A program made the translations under genes and the position numbers. A DNA stretch of 64,000 bases, taken from positions 455 through 64,454 of the forward strand of contig CAZTCT010000001.1 in the NCBI GenBank assembly GCA_964612415.1, given 5' to 3'. The DNA is from an uncultured Candidatus Saccharibacteria bacterium (GTDB lineage: Bacteria > Patescibacteriota > Minisyncoccia > Phycocordibacterales > CAYRGE01). The notes beneath the pieces were generated by a model that worked only from the letters and a program-made list of their open reading frames with translations, was not told where the DNA came from and did not search any database. Each line of letters begins with the position of its first letter. Within the stretch, counting starts at the first letter, position 1. This document shows positions 37,068 to 61,701 of this stretch, piece after piece.

Positions 37068-37976
37068 CTAAAAAATAGACGGGGTGTTGGCTGGCCCAAA
37101 AGACACCAAGAGACTGAATATCATCAAAACAAGGATAGAAAAAAGAAACATTCTTCGTGCCCACTGCCGTTCTTCTGAACCGTTAACCTTTTTAAGGGAA
37201 AGATAAAGCCACCCCACCACAAGCGGAATAATAATGGAAAAATATAGTGTCCCCACATAACCTACAGCAAACAAGAGTGTTGCAAGGGCAGCAAACACAA
37301 TAATGTATAGGCGAATGTGTACTTTTGTATGTGCAATTCCTTTCACGACGGGGAGCACTGGCACCCCAGCCGCTTGGTAATCTCCGAGGCGATAGATGGC
37401 AATGGCATAAGAATGCGGCATCTGCCAAACACATAAAATAAGAAAAAGAAGCAGTGCGCCAAGATCAAAATACCCAGTAACCGCACAGTACCCCGCCACG
37501 GGCGGCACCGCACCAGATACACTCCCAATGAGTGTCCCATAGACTGTCTGTCTCTTCCCCCACATGCTATACACGATCACATAAAAGAATGCTCCGACTG
37601 CGGCGATAAACACTGCGAGCATATTTGTAAAAAAGAAAAGGAGAGAAAACCCGAGCACCCCAAGAACGCCGCCATATACAAGGGCGTGCCGAGGAGGTAT
37701 AAGCCCCGATACAAGTACGCGAGATTTTGTTCTCTCCATGAGCGCATCAATGTCCCTGTCGATGTAATTATTGAAGACACACCCAGCTGCCATTACAAAA
37801 GATACTCCAAAGACTGTGGCAACAAGAAGCCGCAGATCAATGCGCCCTCCCGCAGCAAGCAAGAACCCCGCAAGAATAGTGACGACGTTCCCGTAAATAA
37901 TCCCCGGTTTTACAAGTGAGTAATAATGCTTAAGCAAGATAGTTCTTAATTTAAAATCCGCCTGCCTGATTTTCAA
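37068..37976 (-). CDS. cyoE: Protoheme IX farnesyltransferase (heme O synthase).
   Basis: UbiA-family motifs NNYIDRDIDALMERTKSRVLV, plus 8-9 TM helices. Confidence 0.9.
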   Translation of the reverse strand: MKIRQADFKLRTILLKHYYSLVKPGIIYGNVVTILAGFLLAAGGRIDLRLLVATVFGVSFVMAAGCVFNNYIDRDIDALMERTKSRVLVSGLIPPRHALVYGGVLGVLGFSLLFFFTNMLAVFIAAVGAFFYVIVYSMWGKRQTVYGTLIGSVSGAVPPVAGYCAVTGYFDLGALLLFLILCVWQMPHSYAIAIYRLGDYQAAGVPVLPVVKGIAHTKVHIRLYIIVFAALATLLFAVGYVGTLYFSIIIPLVVGWLYLSLKKVNGSEERQWARRMFLFSILVLMIFSLLVSFGPANTPSIF

Positions 37977-38349
37977 ACTTCATGCTCTCCATGATCGTAT
38001 TCATTTCTTCCTGCGTCATCATCATATTATTGTTGAGGTTATTCATGATCCAGAGAGAGCCCACAACCACCACCCCCACAATAAACACCGTAAAAGAAAA
38101 AACAAGAAGGTTCCATCTTGGTCGAGACTCAGACCTAAGATGCAGGAAAAATATAAGTTGCACAACAAGCTGTGCTAAAGCAAACCCTAATACAGTGACC
38201 AAAAGAACATCTCGAGCTGCAATAGACTTCACCACAAGAAAATACGGTATGAGAGTGAACGCAAGAGAAAGAACGTACCCCCAAACATAGGACCGAAGTG
38301 TTCCCTGTCGTGCTCCATAATTTGTCTGTAAAACTTCAAAATCATTCAT
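37951..38349 (-). CDS. cyoD: Cytochrome o ubiquinol oxidase subunit IV.
   Basis: GSLWIMNNLNNNMMMT closely matches the E. coli CyoD C-terminus. Three TM helices. Confidence 0.85.
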   Translation of the reverse strand: MNDFEVLQTNYGARQGTLRSYVWGYVLSLAFTLIPYFLVVKSIAARDVLLVTVLGFALAQLVVQLIFFLHLRSESRPRWNLLVFSFTVFIVGVVVVGSLWIMNNLNNNMMMTQEEMNTIMESMKFENQAGGF

Positions 38350-38355
38350 ACGTCT

Positions 38356-38958
38356 TTATCCAATAGCGCCCATAAGATACACGATAGTAAAGATGAAGAT
38401 CCACACAATATCCAAAAAATGCCAGAAGAGCCCCCAGCATGTAAGCCTCCTCATCATCGCCGCAGCAAGATCACGCCCCCAGATTTGAATCATAAGAACG
38501 ATCATCCAAATTGACCCAAGTGTCACGTGTAGTCCGTGCGTGCCGACTAAAGTGAAAAAAGCTGACAAAAATCCGCTTCGAGACCACCCGTTCCCTTCGG
38601 AAAAGAAGTGCATGAATTCACTGATCTCAAGCGAGATGAATGAGATCCCAAGCACAAGCGTAGCGGCAAGCCATCCTAATACTTGCCGCTTCTTGTTGTG
38701 GTGTGCTGCAAGAAGAGCAAGGCCTGCCGTAAAGCTACTTGTTAAAAGAATGAGTGTTTCTGTAAGCGCGAAGGGCAAATCAAACAACTCCATTCCTGAA
38801 GGGCCGCCAAATGTATTGTTGCGGAGAACGGCATAAGTTGCAAAAAGGCTCGCGAACAAGACGCAGTCACTCATGATGTACACCCAAAAACCAAAGATGG
38901 TTTTTGAATCTTTTTCTCGTTGTACCGCAAGTTCCTCTTGATGGTTTTCTGTTGCCAT
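38356..38958 (-). CDS. cyoC: Cytochrome o ubiquinol oxidase subunit III.
   Basis: [23 protein letters not shown] matches CyoC. Start taken at MATENHQ, 4 nt after the cyoB stop. Confidence 0.88.
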
Positions 38959-38962
38959 ATAT

Positions 38963-40924
38963 TTATTGTGTAGCAAGCCGAGCTTCTGTGCGCGCAACCT
39001 CTTCTGCGGTAACCACATGTTCTGTGTGTTCATCAAACGATCGTATTACAAAACATACAATAGCAGCCAAAAGTCCAAAGATGGAGAGCCAGGTAATGTG
39101 CCATATCAACCCAAAGCAAAACAGAAAGCCGTAAAAAGCAATGTAAAATCCGACTGGTGTATTTTTGGGAAGATGAATGTCCTCATATTTTGAATGTGGC
39201 GGAATAGGCGTATCCGCATACTTCATGTGCCAAAAGGCATCTCGACTGTACACTCGAGGTATATGTGCGAAGTTATAGTGAGGAGGAGGAGAAGAAATAG
39301 ACCACTCAAGGGTGCGACCATCCCACGGATCTCCAGTTTTGTCTCGATTTCTTCCTCTATTTTTTATACTCACAATCAATTGGGCTAGCTGCACCAACGC
39401 ACCTCCTGCAAGAATGGCCGCGCCGACCGCAGCAACGATTAAAAGCGGGTTCCACGCAAAAGTATCATAATGATCAAGTCGTCGTGTCATGCCCATAAGA
39501 CCAAGTGCGTACAAAGGCATAAACGCAACAAAAAATCCGATGATCCAATGCCAGAAAGCGATGATGCCAAGCCGCTCGTTTAATTTAAATCCAAAGATTT
39601 TCGGAAACCAATAAGTAAGGCCTGCAAAATACCCAAAAAGAACACCTCCGATGATCATATTGTGAAAGTGCGCAACTAAGAATAAGCTGTTGTGAAGTTG
39701 GAAATCGGCTCCTGGTACCGAAAGAAGCACCCCTGTCATACCGCCCAAAGTAAACGTTGCAACAAACCCCAAGAACCAGTGCATTGGTGATGTAAAAGAT
39801 ACACGTCCCCTAAACATGGTAAAAAGCCAATTGAAAATCTTCACTCCCGTCGGAATAGCAATTACCATTGTAGCTATCGCGAAGAACGCATTCACATTCG
39901 GACCTGCCCCCATCGTGTAGAAGTGATGGAGCCACACAATAAAAGAGAGCACCGTTATCGCCATAGTTGCAACGACCATGGAAGTATACCCAAACAATCT
40001 CTTCTTTGAGAAAGTAGCCACTACTTCAGAAAAGACCCCAAACGCAGGAAGGATAAGAATATATACCTCTGGATGCCCCCACGCCCAAATAAGATTGACA
40101 TACATCATAAGATTCCCGCCAAACCCAGCCGTAAAGAAATGCATATCCATGAAGCGGTCAAGGAAAAGCATGGCGAGCGTCGCAGTAAGGATAGGAAACG
40201 CAAAGATAACAAGCGCCATGCTTCCGAGCACAGTCCACGCGAACACAGGCATGCGCATGAGCGTCATTCCTGGGGCACGCATTTTAAAAATCGTGACAAG
40301 AAAGTTTATTCCTGAGAAAAGTGAGCCGAGACCAGCTATCTGCAAACTCCAAATATAATAATCAACCCCTACCCCAGGACTGTACGCGATTTCAGAGAGT
40401 GGTGGGTATGCAAGCCACCCTGTTGCGGCAAATTCTCCCGCGACCAAAGAAAGGTTGAGTAGTACCGCTCCCATAGCAAAGAGCCAAAACGATAAAGAGT
40501 TTAGGAATGGAAATGCAACATCGCGTGCCCCAAGTTGCAGGGGCAATACCCAATTGATAAGTCCAAACATAATGGGCATCGCAACAAAAAATATCATGAT
40601 GACCCCATGCGCGGTGATCACCTGGTCGAAGTGGTCAGCAGAGAGAAAGCCTTGTGCGTCCCCTACTGCCATTGCCTGCTGAGCCCGCATCATCGCCGCA
40701 TCAACAAACCCACGCGCGAGCATGATCACCGCGACAACGATGTACATGACACCGATTTTTTTATGATCAAGAGAAGTCACCCACTCATTCCAGAACCACT
40801 TCCACCGCTTAAAGTAAGTGAGGAGTCCCGCGAACAAAAGCGCTCCAAAGACTACAGTGAGCTGTGCCATTGTTTCTACTACCCCATGGTGGATAAATGC
40901 ATCGATTGTTAGGTTGCCAAACAT
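38963..40924 (-). CDS. cyoB: Cytochrome o ubiquinol oxidase subunit I (heme-copper oxidase catalytic subunit).
   Basis: 653 aa, 12+ TM helices, with the conserved His ligands ([14 protein letters not shown]...HHFYTMG...[11 protein letters not shown]). Confidence 0.95.
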
Positions 40925-40956
40925 GTGTCTCTTTTGTTTAACTCATTATACAGAAA

Positions 40957-41880
40957 TTAGCGCACAGAGATGTGCTCACCCATGTCCATATTCATGTCCT
41001 CCATTGATCTTTGTTCCATCCCAGGCATCATAAACTTCAGCATGATCCGCTCAAAAAGATTACCTTCAACAGAGGAATAGAAAGTGACGGGATGATTTAT
41101 CGTTCGTTTCGCAAGCTCCGTATAAGTATCCCAGTCAAGCTTAAGACCAGAACTTTTCACATCATCAATCCATGAACGAAAACCTTCTTGGGTAACAACT
41201 CGCGTGAGAAAATTCATCCCAGAAAATCCCGCCCCGCTAAAGTTTGCCGAATTGCCCCAGTACGACCCAAGCTCGTCAGCAATAATATGAAGCTTTGTTT
41301 CCATCCCTGGCATTGCGTAAATCTGCCCGGAGAGTTGTGGCACCCAAAAGGAATTCATCGGCGCGTCTGCAGAAAGTTCAAAATTTATTGCTGTATCAAC
41401 AGGGATCTCAAGATAATTTACTGAGGCGATGCCTTGCTCTGGATAGATGAACAGCCACTTCCAATCAAGTGCTACGACCTGCACAGTGATTGGCTTTCCT
41501 TCTTCATGTAGGGGCCTGTATGGATCTAGCTCATGGGTTGTTCTCCAAGTAACAACCGCAAGTATAGAGATAAGGACAAAAGGAACAGCCCACCAGATAA
41601 GCTCATCTATCTTGCTGTGCTCCCAGTCAGGAGAATATTTTGCTTTTTCATTGCTGGCCCGATATGTCCACGCAAAAAAACCAGTAATCAAAAATACCGG
41701 GATTACTACGGTGAGCATCAAGAATGTTGCAAAAACGATGAGGTTTCGCTCCTCATCTGCAATAAGGCCCTTTGGGTCAAGAACAGAAATCCCCGCAACG
41801 CTTGAGAGAAAAAGAAAAAGGCCAATGGCACCAAAGAAAAGCAGAGCCACACGCAATACGGTCTTGTGATTTTGCTTCAT
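40957..41880 (-). CDS. cyoA: Cytochrome o ubiquinol oxidase subunit II, quinol-oxidase type with no CuA site.
   Basis: ALDWKWLFIYPEQGIASVN...MNSFWVPQLSGQIYAMPGMETKLH...FSGAGFSGMNF aligns with E. coli CyoA. No CxxxC...H CuA motif. Confidence 0.9.
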   Translation of the reverse strand: MKQNHKTVLRVALLFFGAIGLFLFLSSVAGISVLDPKGLIADEERNLIVFATFLMLTVVIPVFLITGFFAWTYRASNEKAKYSPDWEHSKIDELIWWAVPFVLISILAVVTWRTTHELDPYRPLHEEGKPITVQVVALDWKWLFIYPEQGIASVNYLEIPVDTAINFELSADAPMNSFWVPQLSGQIYAMPGMETKLHIIADELGSYWGNSANFSGAGFSGMNFLTRVVTQEGFRSWIDDVKSSGLKLDWDTYTELAKRTINHPVTFYSSVEGNLFERIMLKFMMPGMEQRSMEDMNMDMGEHISVR

Positions 41881-43988: not shown

Positions 43989-44151
43989 CTTCAGGTCCTC
44001 CCTGTTGTAATGAACGAATGACTATACCCTTTTTCAATTATATACGAAAATGAGGGTTTTGTCAATCTGGCAATATGGCAATCGCAAAATACAGGCTTGT
44101 CCCACATAAACCATCAATATCCTTGTGGCCAGGGATAATATCTTCGCCGCC

Positions 44152-44172
44152 GTTCAAGTCCTCTCCTGCGCA
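44152..44172 (+). repeat. Inverted copy of the last 21 nt of tRNA-Leu (T-loop plus 3' acceptor strand).
   Basis: GTTCAAGTCCTCTCCTGCGCA on the plus strand is the exact reverse complement of 44221..44241. The 48-nt spacer carries a GCCGG...CCGGC hairpin with U-rich flanks. Confidence 0.8.
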
Positions 44173-44220
44173 AAAATAAAAGTCGCCGGACACATCCGTG
44201 CCCGGCTTCTTAATTTTGTG

Positions 44221-44382: not shown

Positions 44383-44874
44383 TTATGCTTTCTGCTCCTC
44401 TGTTTCTGTTGCTTCAGGAGTATCGTTTGTGGGTTCCGTAGCTTCTGCTGGGGCCTCTGCTGCTTCAGCCTCTTTCTCAATTTCTGCCGTAGAAGAGAAC
44501 CCTGCCTTTGAGATGAGCTTGCTTGTCTTGCTTCGGATCTCTTTGGTAGCCTTATCGCGAATGTAGTAGAGCTTCGCGCGGCGAACTTTCGCGCGGCGAA
44601 CGATCTCAATCTTATCAATCACAGGAGAATAGAGCGGGAAGATGCGCTCTACCCCTACTCCACTTGTTACCTTGCGGACAGTGAAGGTAGCGCCAGCTTC
44701 TGAGCCATGCTTCACAGAAAGCACCATACCCTCAAATATCTGAAGGCGGGTCTTATCCTTTTCTTGAATCTTCTGAAACACGCGCACAGTATCACCCGCT
44801 CGGAGCTGAAGCTTTTTGCGAGCGTCGGTATTTACTGGGGTGAATTTAATTGCTGTTGCTGGCATAGTTTTCAC
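44383..44874 (-). CDS. rplS: 50S ribosomal protein L19 with an Ala/Glu-rich C-terminal extension.
   Basis: [60 protein letters not shown] matches L19. The ~45-aa tail reads [19 protein letters not shown]... Confidence 0.9.
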
Positions 44875-45652: not shown

Positions 45653-45692
45653 TATACAGGATTTTATTTGACCAAAAGAAAGGTGTGGGGTT

Positions 45693-45962
45693 ATGATGGC
45701 AAAAGAAGGACATTACATTCATTTTTTGGAGGGTGTTATGTTAGAGAAACAAGACTCCATGCACAGAAATTCATCCCCTGGTCAGATACTTGCTCCGGTT
45801 ATTTTAAGAGCAATACAGACCGGTAGGCCCCAGCGACTTGCGGGTCACCAGAACAAACAATTTCATAGTGCATTTATTGCTCTGTATGGCGCAGAGATCG
45901 AAAAGAGGCGGACAGAAAAACATCGCTCGTTGGAAAAGCTCAGAAATCTACTTGTAGATTAA
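45693..45962 (+). CDS. Hypothetical small protein.
   Basis: 89 aa ORF preceded by an SD-like AAAGGTGTGGGG. No recognisable motif. Confidence 0.35.
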   Translation: MMAKEGHYIHFLEGVMLEKQDSMHRNSSPGQILAPVILRAIQTGRPQRLAGHQNKQFHSAFIALYGAEIEKRRTEKHRSLEKLRNLLVD

Positions 45963-45967
45963 TCTAA

Positions 45968-46177
45968 GTGCAACTGGAGGGACGCGTGATGTCAAAAGAA
46001 GAGATCATTCGAGGGCCTCGCAGTGAACGCGAGATGCTTCAGGGAGGTGGTCGCCCGAAGAGGTACGACCCTGTCACTGGGTTACCACTTCCTGACAACG
46101 CTCAATTGAAATATTTGAAGGCTTCAAAAGCGAACGCAGGCTCCTTGGGCAAAGAAACGCTCATCCAGGAGGACTAA
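45968..46177 (+). CDS. Hypothetical small protein.
   Basis: 69 aa, 5 nt after the previous ORF. No recognisable motif. Confidence 0.35.
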   Translation: MQLEGRVMSKEEIIRGPRSEREMLQGGGRPKRYDPVTGLPLPDNAQLKYLKASKANAGSLGKETLIQED

Positions 46178-46260
46178 AGGCGCTCATCCGAGAAGGTGAG
46201 CTCCGTCGCGATACAAAATCTTCAACAGATTGAATTTAAAAACAATCAAGGGGGATTAAA

Positions 46261-46428
46261 TGTCTTCAAGACAACGTAAGCAATACAGCTTCGGAAGGAG
46301 AAGGAAAATCCGTGACGATCTTTCTACAGACACAGCTCTACTTCTTCTCAGGAACACTCCTGCAGGTGTGGCTGGAGCAATAAATCGCCTTATGGCACGT
46401 TGTCAGCACAGGCATCACAGGCAGTAAC
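46261..46428 (+). CDS. Possible small basic protein (55 aa), not in the ORF track.
   Basis: ATG preceded by the SD CAAGGGGGATTAA. Translation is MSSRQRKQYSFGRRRKIRDDLSTDTALLLLRNTPAGVAGAINRLMARCQHRHHRQ. It overlaps the start of the next ORF in another frame. Confidence 0.25.
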
Positions 46429-46666
46429 ATATCTTGCAACTACAACAAAGAAGGAGCAGTGCAGCATGACAAGTAAAAACTACAGGGACCTTGGTCTGGT
46501 AGAACCAATTGACCATTCTGAAAACACTCTTTCCGGGTCTTCGTACGAAGATGAGCCCCCCCTCAAACAGCCACCCGTTCACAGTGGGACTCTTCATTGC
46601 ACCGACGAAGGACAAGCACGAAGATTTGGGGTAGAAATGTATCCCATAACAATCCCTTTCATATAA
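46400..46666 (+). CDS. Hypothetical small protein.
   Basis: 88 aa ORF followed 25 nt later by a clean intrinsic terminator. Confidence 0.35.
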   Translation: MSAQASQAVTYLATTTKKEQCSMTSKNYRDLGLVEPIDHSENTLSGSSYEDEPPLKQPPVHSGTLHCTDEGQARRFGVEMYPITIPFI

Positions 46667-46691
46667 AAATGAACCCCTTTTAATTACGAAA

Positions 46692-46714
46692 GCCCCGCAT
46701 TGCGGGGCTTTTTG
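46692..46714 (+). terminator. Rho-independent terminator after the small-ORF cluster.
   Basis: GCCCCGC-ATT-GCGGGGC followed by TTTTTG. Confidence 0.65.
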
Positions 46715-46716
46715 TT

Positions 46717-46737
46717 TAGTGGGCGGTACAGGACTTG
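46717..46737 (-). repeat. Direct repeat of the tRNA-Val 3' end, located 150 nt downstream of the tRNA gene.
   Basis: Plus-strand TAGTGGGCGGTACAGGACTTG is identical to 46887..46907, which is the 3' end of tRNA-Val. Confidence 0.8.
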
Positions 46738-46888
46738 GTCACAACTCTGCCTTGCCTTAAGCGGCAGGTCGCTACCCCGCCTCGCGCACGGCCTTCGGCC
46801 GGCTTCGCGCGCTCCGGCTTTCAAGTCCTCCACGCCGCACAAAATAAAAGTCGCCGAATGCTCTCGCATCCGGCTCCTTTATTTTTAG
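46738..46888. other. GC-rich structured non-coding segment between the tRNA-Val 3'-end direct repeats.
   Basis: Contains GGCCTTCGGCC (a UUCG-tetraloop hairpin), GCGCGC runs, a degenerate inverted copy of the tRNA-Val 3' end (GGCTTTCAAGTCCTCCACGCCGCAC), and the AAAATAAAAGTCGCCG...CCGGC spacer that is also seen next to tRNA-Leu. Confidence 0.5.
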
Positions 46889-46961
46889 TGGGCGGTACAG
46901 GACTTGAACCTGTGACCTTCTCGGTGTAAACGAGTTGCTCTACCAACTGAGCTAACCGCCC
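46889..46961 (-). tRNA. tRNA-Val (TAC), CCA not encoded.
   Basis: Reverse complement is GGGCGGTTAGCTCAGTTGGTAGAGCAACTCGTTTACACCGAGAAGGTCACAGGTTCAAGTCCTGTACCGCCCA. Anticodon loop is UUUACAC. Confidence 0.85.
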
Positions 46962-47087
46962 GTGTGATGCTTGTTTCTTATGGTCACGAGAGCTGCGAGG
47001 ACGCTTCGCTATCTCACTCCTCGGAAACCTACATCCCCTATCACCTGCTCGCTTCGCTTGCATCGGTGATTTTGCTTTGCAAATCGG

Positions 47088-47116
47088 ATGAAACACAAAG
47101 CAGTTTGTGTTTCATT
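47088..47116. terminator. Hairpin downstream of tRNA-Arg, a candidate terminator.
   Basis: TGAAACACAAAG-CAGT-TTGTGTTTCA perfect stem with T/A-rich flanks. Confidence 0.4.
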
Positions 47117-47177
47117 TCTACTCCGGACTTCGTCCTGCCTTCCTCCCCGGGAAACTTCCATTTCCCGACCCCTTCCC

Positions 47178-47199
47178 TGTTCGATTCCTCGCGAGGGAA
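47178..47199 (+). repeat. Inverted copy of the tRNA-Arg(TCT) 3' end.
   Basis: Plus-strand GTTCGATTCCTCGCGAGGGAAG matches the sense 3' end GGTTCGATTCCTCGCGAGGGCA of the minus-strand tRNA, 25 nt away. Confidence 0.7.
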
Positions 47200-47224
47200 G
47201 AAAATATACTCCGTTATTTTCTTA

Positions 47225-47296
47225 TGCCCTCGCGAGGAATCGAACCTCGATTAACGGCTTAGAAGTCCGCAGTTCTATCCATTGAACTACGAGGGC
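47225..47296 (-). tRNA. tRNA-Arg (TCT).
   Basis: Reverse complement is GCCCTCGTAGTTCAATGGATAGAACTGCGGACTTCTAAGCCGTTAATCGAGGTTCGATTCCTCGCGAGGGCA. Anticodon loop is CUUCUAA. Confidence 0.8.
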
Positions 47297-57147: not shown

Positions 57148-57154
57148 TAAGGCA

Positions 57155-57180
57155 GAAAAAGTGAACTGCTTCACTTTTTC
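57155..57180 (+). terminator. Terminator after tRNA-Arg(GCG).
   Basis: GAAAAAGTGAA-CTGC-TTCACTTTTTC. Confidence 0.7.
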
Positions 57181-57295
57181 GGGCGCTTATGCCAAGCGGA
57201 GCCATGTTTTGCAAGCTTGCAAAACAGGCGAGCTGGGGTCGAGGAATTTCAATCGCGACGGCGATTGGAATATCCGTGACCACAAAAGACACAGC

Positions 57296-57333
57296 AAAAA
57301 AAACAGCTCATCCGATCGGATGAGCTGTTTTTT
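57296..57333 (-). terminator. Terminator after rpsT; the palindrome is symmetric.
   Basis: AAAAAAAACAGCTCATCCGATCGGATGAGCTGTTTTTT. Confidence 0.75.
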
Positions 57334-60660: not shown

Positions 60661-60667
60661 ACAAATG

Positions 60668-60700
60668 ACAAAAAATCTCCCTTAGGGGAGATTTTTATTT
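60668..60700 (+). terminator. Terminator after tRNA-Lys.
   Basis: AAAAAATCTCCC-TTAG-GGGAGATTTTTATTTT. Confidence 0.75.
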
Positions 60701-60978
60701 TGCCCGAAGAGTAGCTCGCCGCCCCTATAGAAACTTTACTTATCCACAACCGTCCCATTGTCGGTATTTATGGCAGAGATATAATTACTTCAGATTTGAG
60801 TGGCAGTGCGCAAAATCGGACCGGGTCTGGTTGCCCATAAAAACCAATTAAAAAGTCCGCTCGCGCACGAGCTTCACATACCGTTCATTCACAACCCAAA
60901 AGTTTTTTCTCCCCATCTGTTCTTTATCTCCTATTTTTTAAAAGCCTCGCTCATGCGAGGCTTTTTCTTTTCTATTAT

Positions 60979-61701
60979 TTATATGGTGAGAGCAATACGC
61001 TCCAGTGCGTGAGCGAACTCCGTCTCTCCTTGATGTGCGCGATGATATGTATCAACAAGGTCTTGGGATAGCTTTGTCAGTTCTTCGTTTGTGAAATTCT
61101 TTGCATACCTTGTAGCATTTTTTAAAACGAATGGATTTAGTCCCGTATTAGATTCTTTTCCTTCCGCAGCATCTTTTGCAAGTGACATTGCTTTCACCTG
61201 CCAAAAAAGCGTTCCATGAATTTCTTCAGGTGCAATACCTTTTTCAAGTGCGTTCATAAGAAGCAGCCACATCCTCTTTTTGTCACGTTCGCCAAGAGCA
61301 TTGGCAAGCGTAAAAATATTAAAGTCCTGTTTTTTGTTGTATGGGTCCTCTTCGCACGCATGCGTAGATATCGCTACTTTCCCGATTTTTTTCGCAAGAC
61401 GTGCATCAAACGCATTCTCCAAAACTATAAAAAATTTACTGGATGCAGAAAGTGATTCGAGGTTTGCCAGAAGAAATTCTTTTGCATCAGCGTCCTTACA
61501 CCACTCGGAAAGCACGATCATTTGTTTTTGAGAAAAAAGATCTGTCTCTTCTGTGAGCGTAGTAAGTGTATCATTCCCCGCCTCATCACCAGACACAACA
61601 ACAATCACAGCACTAGGACTTTCTTTTAGAAATTTCTTTTTTTCTTCTTCAAGAGCCTTCCTTGTCCCTTGTCTGTCTGTGCCGTAAATGAGCGTAAGCA
61701 T
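60979..61701 (-). CDS. holA: DNA polymerase III delta subunit (HolA-like), short form.
   Basis: 240 aa with a delta-subunit-like N-terminus (LTLIYGTD...LFSQKQMIVLSE...). Ends 2 nt before the polA stop. Confidence 0.5.
   Translation of the reverse strand: MLTLIYGTDRQGTRKALEEEKKKFLKESPSAVIVVVSGDEAGNDTLTTLTEETDLFSQKQMIVLSEWCKDADAKEFLLANLESLSASSKFFIVLENAFDARLAKKIGKVAISTHACEEDPYNKKQDFNIFTLANALGERDKKRMWLLLMNALEKGIAPEEIHGTLFWQVKAMSLAKDAAEGKESNTGLNPFVLKNATRYAKNFTNEELTKLSQDLVDTYHRAHQGETEFAHALERIALTI

Follow-up and report, generated by a model that had tools for sequence, protein, structure and literature searches.

A candidate family of structured tRNA-trailer elements and a separate operon of tiny genes beside tRNA-Val in a patescibacterial genome

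What occupies the interval between rluA and the tRNA-Val(tac) gene in the 64,000-nucleotide (nt) stretch of DNA analysed here as a whole (the window), and did it arrive there as part of a mobile element? Homologues of ribosomal protein L19 put the window in the Patescibacteria (candidate phyla radiation), near the Paceibacteria. The minus strand of the region carries tRNA-His, tRNA-Leu(gag), rplS, rluA, tRNA-Val(tac), tRNA-Arg(tct) and pilM/N/O-like genes; an islet of small open reading frames (ORFs) lies on the plus strand, opposite to its neighbours rplS, rluA, the tRNAs and pilMNO, all of which are on the minus strand. Next to the islet, a copy of the 3' end of tRNA-Val and a segment rich in guanine and cytosine (GC) lead up to the tRNA itself. 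The original prediction, made from the letters of the window, took all of this for the decayed remnant of a tRNA-integrated mobile element with small cargo genes, and/or for an unannotated structured small RNA. For comparison, strains near-identical to approximately 3-8% diverged were taken from public read assemblies (L001/L014, L002/L015, L016, L017 and L021), together with the relatives L018 (82% L19 identity; ENA ERZ27247828) and L019 (64% L19 identity) and marine relatives including L029; RluA-based scans of genomes and metagenomes for close relatives returned distant ones only (41-60% identity), in which the upstream genes are different.

The GC-rich segment is a member of a family of folded elements, not described before and here named X, whose copies lie downstream of several tRNA genes. 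Its composition had already been remarked on as unlike that of its surroundings, and this is borne out (65-66% GC versus about 45-50%). X elements are approximately 95-130 nt long and lie in the 3' trailers and spacers of tRNA genes. Their layout begins at the tRNA 3' end and continues with a hairpin, a stretch complementary to the 3' end or trailer of that same tRNA, AGCCGGAGC, hairpin 1, GCGAGGCNGGGU, hairpin 2, GUGACCA and a terminator or the next tRNA; hairpins 1 and 2 are variable. The copy following tRNA-Val (XVal; 46715-46849 as a whole, minus strand, tRNA-Val sense) carries the series that defines the family, AGCCGGAGC - 25-nt hairpin - GCGAGGCNGGGU - hairpin - GUGACCA, in tRNA sense and 3' of a tRNA. 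Features are listed with their coordinates in Table 1.

Membership of XVal was assessed with a covariance model built from two sequences only, the complete copy X1 (window 57191-57285) and X2, a complete copy that follows tRNA-Leu in the sister strain L016 and is 85% identical to X1. The model was used in place of MAFFT because the hairpins of XVal share no sequence with those of X1 and X2, so that the MAFFT alignment failed. Its top match outside X1 in the 64 kb is the XVal core (23.4 bits, E about 0.004), and the only other significant one is the antisense of X1; the remnant after tRNA-Leu is matched weakly (E 0.55), and no match with E below approximately 0.6 falls off the tRNA flanks in the window. 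The string CGGAGC-N25-GCGAG-N3-GGGT is likewise present in the window in X1 and XVal only, with 0 occurrences expected by chance. Differences between X1 and X2 are mainly compensatory: there are 9 compensatory pairs, with 95.7% pairing, versus at most 1 in controls in which the partner was slid by 1-3 columns.

The minimum-energy folds of X1, X2 and XVal have an identical two-hairpin layout. On the minus strand, XVal folds (z -3.5) into two hairpins closed by the conserved motifs, and this fold is enclosed by a helix of approximately 19 bp between the distal tRNA copy and an imperfect inverted copy of the tRNA 3' end, termed the anti-arm (46820-46849). The hairpin GGCCTTCGGCC, described at first as a perfect GGCC-UUCG-GGCC tetraloop, is actually a GGCC-UUC-GGCC triloop (CGGCC-UUC-GGCCG in full) and, in the fold of the minus strand (the better supported one), makes up the tip of hairpin 1. 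The tRNA-sense strand is the more stable one in all five elements (-63.9 versus -50.0, -66.7 versus -54.0, -68.4 versus -59.2, -36.3 versus -30.1 and -43.3 versus -41.2 kcal/mol), and the composition-corrected z-score favours it in four of the five. The XVal core is 100% identical in the diverged strain L021; over 46667-46943 (277 nt) there are 0 differences in that strain, versus 19 in the adjoining 711 nt (P about 0.003, less if neutral sites are faster).

X-related sequence follows four of the seven tRNAs in the window. Beside X1 and XVal there are the remnant after tRNA-Leu and XArg, the long spacer between tRNA-Arg(tct) and tRNA-Val, which is a looser, longer relative recognised by motif only and not by the model, and which begins with 19 nt (47179-47197) perfectly complementary to the 3' end of tRNA-Arg. 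An 8-nt loop, AACUGCUU, is conserved in X1, X2 and the XArg module, and so are the junction motifs. X1 and X2 are located between a tRNA and the first G+C-rich terminator, and XArg between two co-oriented tRNAs behind one promoter; by this anatomy all three are placed inside a tRNA transcription unit, before the first intrinsic terminator, while for XVal the terminator at 46853-46874 intervenes. The suggestion of an unannotated structured small RNA thus holds in so far as a structured, RNA-like element is present in the segment, on the minus strand and in multiple copies, and it matches nothing in Rfam: tRNAs alone pass the gathering threshold, and nothing credible appears over 46700-47224 or 57148-57300, even at E 1-10. 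A hidden, split or permuted tRNA or tmRNA was sought in the segment with ARAGORN, which gave noise under relaxed settings with introns and none by default, and blastn of XVal against phage DNA recovered a generic terminator hairpin only. The one match of the X motif in viral contigs is a chance occurrence in a high-GC coding region and was rejected by the model.

Two of the loci differ between strains. On the 3' side of tRNA-Leu, the window (44120-44219) and L016 (1-203) differ throughout save for 32 nt that correspond to the 3' half of hairpin 2 of X; as the downstream gene content differs as well, this side of tRNA-Leu is probably a strain-level recombination hot spot. In the tRNA-Arg/tRNA-Val spacer, an X-like module of approximately 95 nt (47035-47129) gives way to 13 nt (TCGGAAAACCGTG) in the SRR33902050 strain, which is otherwise 99.3% identical; here the join of the L026 and L001 contig ends relies on a 16-nt overlap.

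How X should be understood is a matter of weighing several readings. The one preferred here, to which we would give not quite an even chance, takes X to be a family of structured tRNA-trailer or spacer RNAs restricted to this lineage. Each element would be transcribed within the tRNA precursor and fold as RNA, and would act in cis on the 3'-end processing, stability or termination of that precursor; alternatively, cleavage of the precursor at the tRNA ends might set it free as a stable trailer RNA. For XVal, the long helix closing the core would have the 23-nt direct repeat as its 3' strand. This strand is identical to the acceptor plus T-stem strand of tRNA-Val, and the anti-arm has two pairing options, the real tRNA-Val 3' end or the distal copy. 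Several points weigh against such an RNA family. The structure statistics come from two or three sequences, and X is known from one species-level lineage only, since the model finds no copy in the relatives; L019 has the tRNA-Val architecture in common with the window but not the core sequence. XVal is flanked by two bidirectional-capable terminators, of which the one at 46853-46874 is strong, and no promoter of its own was found, so that it may be transcribed by read-through only. Some X copies would seem to be dispensable or dynamic, because those at tRNA-Leu and tRNA-Arg(tct) differ by whole modules among near-identical strains. Finally, a perfect 22-nt palindrome runs through the centre of hairpin 1 in both X1 and X2, a property more usual in palindromic DNA than in RNA hairpins.

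A more elaborate form of the RNA reading, which we consider distinctly unlikely, would make X a new class of tRNA-precursor-derived RNAs, each bearing a cis antisense to the 3' half of its own tRNA. In the Val copy, a decoy of the tRNA 3' end would neutralise that antisense, and the two would together mimic an acceptor/T-stem that could be cut and extended by the enzymes processing tRNA ends. RNAs of this kind might gate tRNA 3' maturation, or mimic tRNA ends, in a minimal-RNase bacterium.

The palindromes bring up a different possibility, one that we regard as improbable though deserving of attention: X could be palindromic DNA of selfish or mutational origin, with hairpin modules assembled into a mosaic as in REP/BIME, BOX or MITE sequences, and could have no specific RNA function beyond that of a terminator or transcript stabiliser. 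Such a mosaic would spread or change through recombination and through template switching at palindromic terminators, copying the tRNA 3' end in inverted form and correcting imperfect palindromes. Multi-copy hairpin modules with strain-level gain and loss are indeed what is seen (X1 and XVal in the window, X2 in L016, the Leu remnant and, at motif level, XArg), the copies being modular and polymorphic among strains, although XVal is fully invariant among them and, within the 64 kb, copies occur only at tRNA 3' flanks. Past the downstream hairpin, inverted copies of the tRNA's own 3' end are perfect over 21 nt at tRNA-Leu (44152-44172, where a Val-type terminator also precedes the remnant) and over 19 nt at tRNA-Arg(tct), and reach 73% over 30 nt at tRNA-Val; the tRNA-Leu copy is probably recent, as it is absent in a sister strain. 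The hairpins downstream of tRNA-Leu and tRNA-Val are 76% identical over 71 nt, the terminator hairpin at 46853-46874 being homologous to the one after tRNA-Leu, and several terminators are, like hairpin 1, perfect palindromes. Palindrome correction can imitate compensatory change; it is the consistently better folding of the sense strand, together with the conserved unpaired junction motifs and the 8-nt loop, which suggest specific recognition, that speaks for more than palindromic DNA. No transposase gene was found in the Pfam-scanned part of the window, and flanking direct repeats exist at XVal only, where, at 23 nt, they exceed the length of a typical target duplication.

That direct repeat is one of the features from which integration was originally proposed. 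It had been given as 21 nt at 46717..46737; it is real, and its actual extent is 23 nt exact (CAAGTCCTGTACCGCCCACTAAA on the tRNA strand; 46715-46737 = 46884-46906), or 30 nt at 93%, far beyond chance. An exact direct copy running from the T-loop to past the 3' end of a tRNA is the classic footprint of integration (PMC4383910), and the distal copy is followed immediately by what is apparently the original tRNA terminator. The 146 bp between tRNA-Val and this copy might, on this account, be what remains of an integrative element that recombined at the tRNA-Val 3' end, or a miniature element mobilised in trans; the element would have brought the terminator for the regenerated tRNA, and the likeness of X at other tRNAs would represent a conserved tRNA-proximal arm of related elements. 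We hold this to be unlikely, while taking it seriously. An island must sit between the regenerated tRNA and the displaced tRNA fragment (PMC4383910). Both of these are found at tRNA-Val, but the 146 bp between them hold only overlapping non-ATG frames of 61-64 amino acids (aa) across the G+C-rich repeat and no credible gene, and the islet (45693-46666) lies outside, beyond the distal fragment. Between 35 and 58 kb, the genes examined include no integrase or recombinase; they comprise ORFs of at least 130 aa scanned with Pfam in 35-43 kb, the genes of the 43-45.7 kb interval, and those with precomputed Pfam calls on overlapping contigs at about 46.9-50.6, 54.6-57.1 and 57.3-60.6 kb (ORFs at 50.8-51.9 and 53.2-54.0 kb were not scanned). 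Integrase-binding arms, moreover, predict neither covarying hairpins nor an advantage of the sense strand, and X1, X2 and XArg are without a distal tRNA copy.

The distribution of the repeat among strains and relatives bears on the same question. The structure at tRNA-Val is present and identical in all three strain types, a fixity of XVal that counts against an integration scar, while the sequence just 3' of tRNA-Leu differs wholesale among strains, as island junctions do. The tRNA-Val structure is absent in the marine relatives, where the tRNA is also inverted, and the contig of L018, the closest relative, stops short of the site. L019 offers an independent example with an identical layout of tRNA, terminator, imperfect inverted T-loop piece, hairpin core and a 22-nt exact copy. 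That copy matches L019's own tRNA-Val 3' end, which differs from the window's at 3 of 19 positions (counted by eye), and no islet comes after it. The repeat therefore appears to track the tRNA in each lineage, independently of the islet, so that the link drawn originally between repeat and islet falls away. Such tracking fits a functional requirement, in which the repeat closes the helix or serves the anti-arm as a decoy; alternatively, it fits a hot spot at which integrase-type events occurred independently.

The islet itself is, to judge from its layout and its relatives, a small operon of four tiny lineage-restricted proteins with a promoter divergent from rluA, and has been in part vertically inherited. 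As first described, four short plus-strand ORFs with Shine-Dalgarno sequences and a terminator (46688-46712) run opposite to their neighbours. They measure 89, 69, 55 and 88 aa (45693-45962, 45968-46177, 46260-46427 and 46400-46666), and a Shine-Dalgarno-like sequence is present at each; Shine-Dalgarno-preceded starts yield 62 aa (ATG 45989) and 66 aa (ATG 46466). The true start of the 89-aa ORF may be ATG 45738, which has GGAGGG before it, because the -10 hexamer overlaps the first ATG. The strongly basic small ORF of the original description is that of 55 aa, which has no gene call anywhere in the protein collection.

Differences among strains concentrate at third codon positions (24 of 29 variable sites over the islet; binomial P < 1e-7), which shows that the small ORFs are coding, and the four are genuine genes under purifying selection. 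For the 89-aa ORF the 12 variable sites comprise 8 at third and 4 at second positions; for the 55-aa ORF all four are at third positions, three of them synonymous; and for the 66-aa ORF all six are at third positions and synonymous. The 62-aa ORF comes from a 1-nt deletion at 46102/46103, found in the window relative to L001/L014, L016 and L021 and shared by L002, that truncates and recodes an 81-aa gene; in the 81-aa frame, third positions account for 6 of 7 variable sites. AlphaFold gives low-confidence models for the 89-aa protein (helical; predicted local distance difference test (pLDDT) 57, predicted template modelling score (pTM) 0.34) and for the 66-aa protein (pLDDT 63, pTM 0.17). A 15-nt repeat (TGATGGCAAAAGAAG / TGATGTCAAAAGAAG) stands at 45694-45708 and 45987-46001, at the starts of the 89-aa and 62/81-aa ORFs; since its first copy belongs to a leader conserved in L018, it hints that the extra islet genes arose by local duplication.

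That the small ORFs are unrecognisable is confirmed, none having a family match in Pfam, PHROGs, PADLOC or NCBIfam at E up to 1, and the same result leaves the proposed toxin/antitoxin or anti-defence identity without support. Searched for in billions of proteins, the 89-aa protein matches itself alone. For the 66-aa protein no other true homologue was found among 1.8 and 5.8 billion proteins, the hits being low-complexity repeat artefacts only, and a profile made from it and the L018 fragment recovers the query alone. tblastn of the 81-aa and 55-aa proteins against the phage collection gave no match.

In L018 the promoter-like TTGACC-18-TATGAT and the adjoining ATGATGGCAAAAGAAG are conserved beside rluA, and directly after them comes a partial ORF 50% identical to the 66-aa gene. 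With the promoter and the 66-aa gene thus common to both at the same rluA locus, the core of the islet is inherited, and a recent import of the whole islet is not supported. The 89-, 81-, and 55-aa genes, missing in L018 between promoter and homologue, may be either an insertion in the window lineage or a loss in L018. More distant relatives have acyP at this position, with or without uppS. Overprinting of the islet on a decayed acyP or uppS was considered and rejected, tblastn showing no remnant; the end of the islet next to rluA was also examined for a third fragment of tRNA-Val, and the weak gapped resemblance there, which overlaps the rluA start codon and the promoter, was judged to be chance.

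The idea of the islet as mobile cargo, in which the four genes would be toxin/antitoxin or anti-defence genes left from a decayed tRNA-Val island, must be set against this history, and we find it very improbable. Genes without homologues, on the opposite strand, at a site where relatives have acyP with or without uppS, three of the four being missing from the corresponding place in L018, are what such cargo might look like. The GC content of the islet is genome-like, however, and the islet stands outside the repeat-bounded interval with no recombinase found nearby; its promoter and one of its genes are shared with a relative at the equal locus, the family databases named above give no match, two of the proteins are without a match in the phage collection, and neither a third tRNA-Val fragment near rluA in relatives nor islet homologues inside phages or plasmids were found. 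That the genes are cargo brought in by a tRNA-integrated element is not supported, since the islet lies past an interval of only 146 bp and the scanned genes include no recombinase. No evidence for the islet as mobile cargo was found.

Table 1. Features of the tRNA-Val region and X copies in the window (positions are those of the window)
Feature	Position	Strand	Remarks
X remnant after tRNA-Leu	44120..44219	-	3' half of hairpin 2 only (CGGCGGCGAAGATATTATCCCTGGCCACA)
Promoter-like site TTGACC-18-TATGAT of small-gene operon	45668..45697	+	consensus scan; divergent from rluA
89-aa ORF (possibly 74 aa from 45738)	45693..45962	+	carried only by near-identical strains
62-aa ORF, frameshifted form of 81-aa gene	45989..46177	+	81-aa gene intact in three other strains
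55-aa strongly basic ORF	46260..46427	+	basic stretch RQRKQYSFGRRRKIRDD
66-aa acidic ORF	46466..46666	+	AAGGAG Shine-Dalgarno; sole islet gene with a homologue in a relative
Terminator hairpin ending small-gene operon	46688..46712	.	also follows distal tRNA-Val 3' copy
Distal direct copy of tRNA-Val 3' end	46715..46737	-	mid T-loop to discriminator plus 5 trailer bases
XVal core	46733..46822	-	AGCCGGAGC - hairpin 1 - GCGAGGCGGGGU - hairpin 2 - GUGACCA
Anti-arm, imperfect inverted tRNA 3' end copy	46820..46849	-	30 nt, 73% complementary
Terminator hairpin, G+C-rich, directly 3' of tRNA-Val	46853..46874	-	A and T tracts on flanks, usable in both directions
tRNA-Val(tac)	46888..46961	-	CCA not encoded
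XArg, 263-nt structured spacer tRNA-Arg(tct)/tRNA-Val	46962..47224	-	X-like modules, GUGACCA end
tRNA-Arg(tct)	47225..47296	-	promoter-like TTGACC-17-TATAGT upstream at 47336-47308
X1, complete copy	57148..57290	+	between tRNA-Arg(gcg) and terminator shared with rpsT

The wider locus shows some further features. More distant relatives, otherwise collinear, have the order pilMNO, 99-aa ORF homologue, tRNA-Arg(tct), tRNA-Val, acyP, rluA, rplS, tRNA-Leu, cobA, tRNA-His. The orientation of tRNA-Val(tac) in the window (46888-47296) is inverted versus relatives (L029 8743-8911 and L019 6066-6140 were compared); the marine relatives have tRNA-Arg(tct) converging with tRNA-Val at a distance of 18 nt, and their tRNA-Val encodes CCA, which that of L019, like the window's, does not. 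The rplS gene (44383-44620, minus strand) encodes an acidic low-complexity C-terminal tail that is variable among strains, with a 14-nt tandem duplicate at 44573-44601. Between 35463 and 37049 (minus strand) a pilin-like gene with an N-terminal methylation motif lies between two Peptidase_C39 paralogues, and 37068-41880 (minus strand) holds a haem-copper oxidase set, COX2, COX1, COX3 and COX4_pro, with a haem O synthase of the UbiA family; respiratory oxidases are not commonly known from Patescibacteria. At 60663-60985 (plus strand), 3' of tRNA-Lys, approximately 300 nt of non-coding sequence lie between two terminators; no significant match was obtained there with Rfam, searched over the whole window at the gathering threshold, or with the X model, whose only matches are two weak partial ones on the terminator hairpins. 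The public read-assembly contigs all stop at perfect palindromes, at window 57304 (terminator) and 47124 (X hairpin), which is read as an assembly artefact and not as biology.

Genomes of the candidate phyla radiation are small and compact, which makes conserved non-coding sequence of this kind notable. Downstream of tRNA genes that each seem to occur once in the available sequence lies, in this case, a folded, multi-copy element with a complement or copy of the tRNA's own 3' end. If X acts as RNA, it would represent an undescribed layer of tRNA-precursor processing or control and a new candidate family for RNA catalogues; if it acts as DNA, it would record repeated remodelling of tRNA 3' flanks. 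The locus also advises caution, in that a tRNA 3'-end repeat beside small genes without homologues is insufficient for calling a genomic island.

Among known systems, XVal resembles the displaced tRNA 3' fragments catalogued by Islander in having an exact direct copy of the tRNA 3' end, from the T-loop to past the discriminator, downstream of an intact tRNA (PMC4383910). Unlike Islander islands, the tRNA-Val interval is 146 bp with no integrase or other gene and consists of a covarying folded element, not island DNA, and the other X copies have no distal fragment. REP/BIME, BOX and ERIC sequences are multi-copy, modular, hairpin-forming intergenic repeats downstream of genes, with module gain and loss at strain level. 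X is like them in being multi-copy, modular and hairpin-forming, with modules gained and lost among strains, and differs in being confined to tRNA 3' flanks in the available sequence and in including tRNA-specific sequence; no cognate transposase was seen in the scanned part. RNAs with tRNA-like acceptor ends include tmRNA, with its tRNA-like domain, and mascRNA-type RNAs, which are cut by RNase P and RNase Z. As in these, the 5' and 3' ends of XVal pair in the predicted fold, the 3' strand being the T-stem plus acceptor strand and discriminator of tRNA-Val; unlike them, XVal has no T-loop or cloverleaf and no ARAGORN or Rfam match. A precedent for a functional spacer in a tRNA precursor is the 53-nt 3' external transcribed spacer of leuZ in E. 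coli (PMC8166272). Like it, X1, X2 and XArg are by their anatomy non-tRNA sequence in a tRNA transcription unit, before the terminator or the next tRNA, and could be excised in maturation; unlike it, X is longer (approximately 95-260 nt) and multi-copy, has conserved motifs, and includes a complement of the 3' end of its own tRNA.

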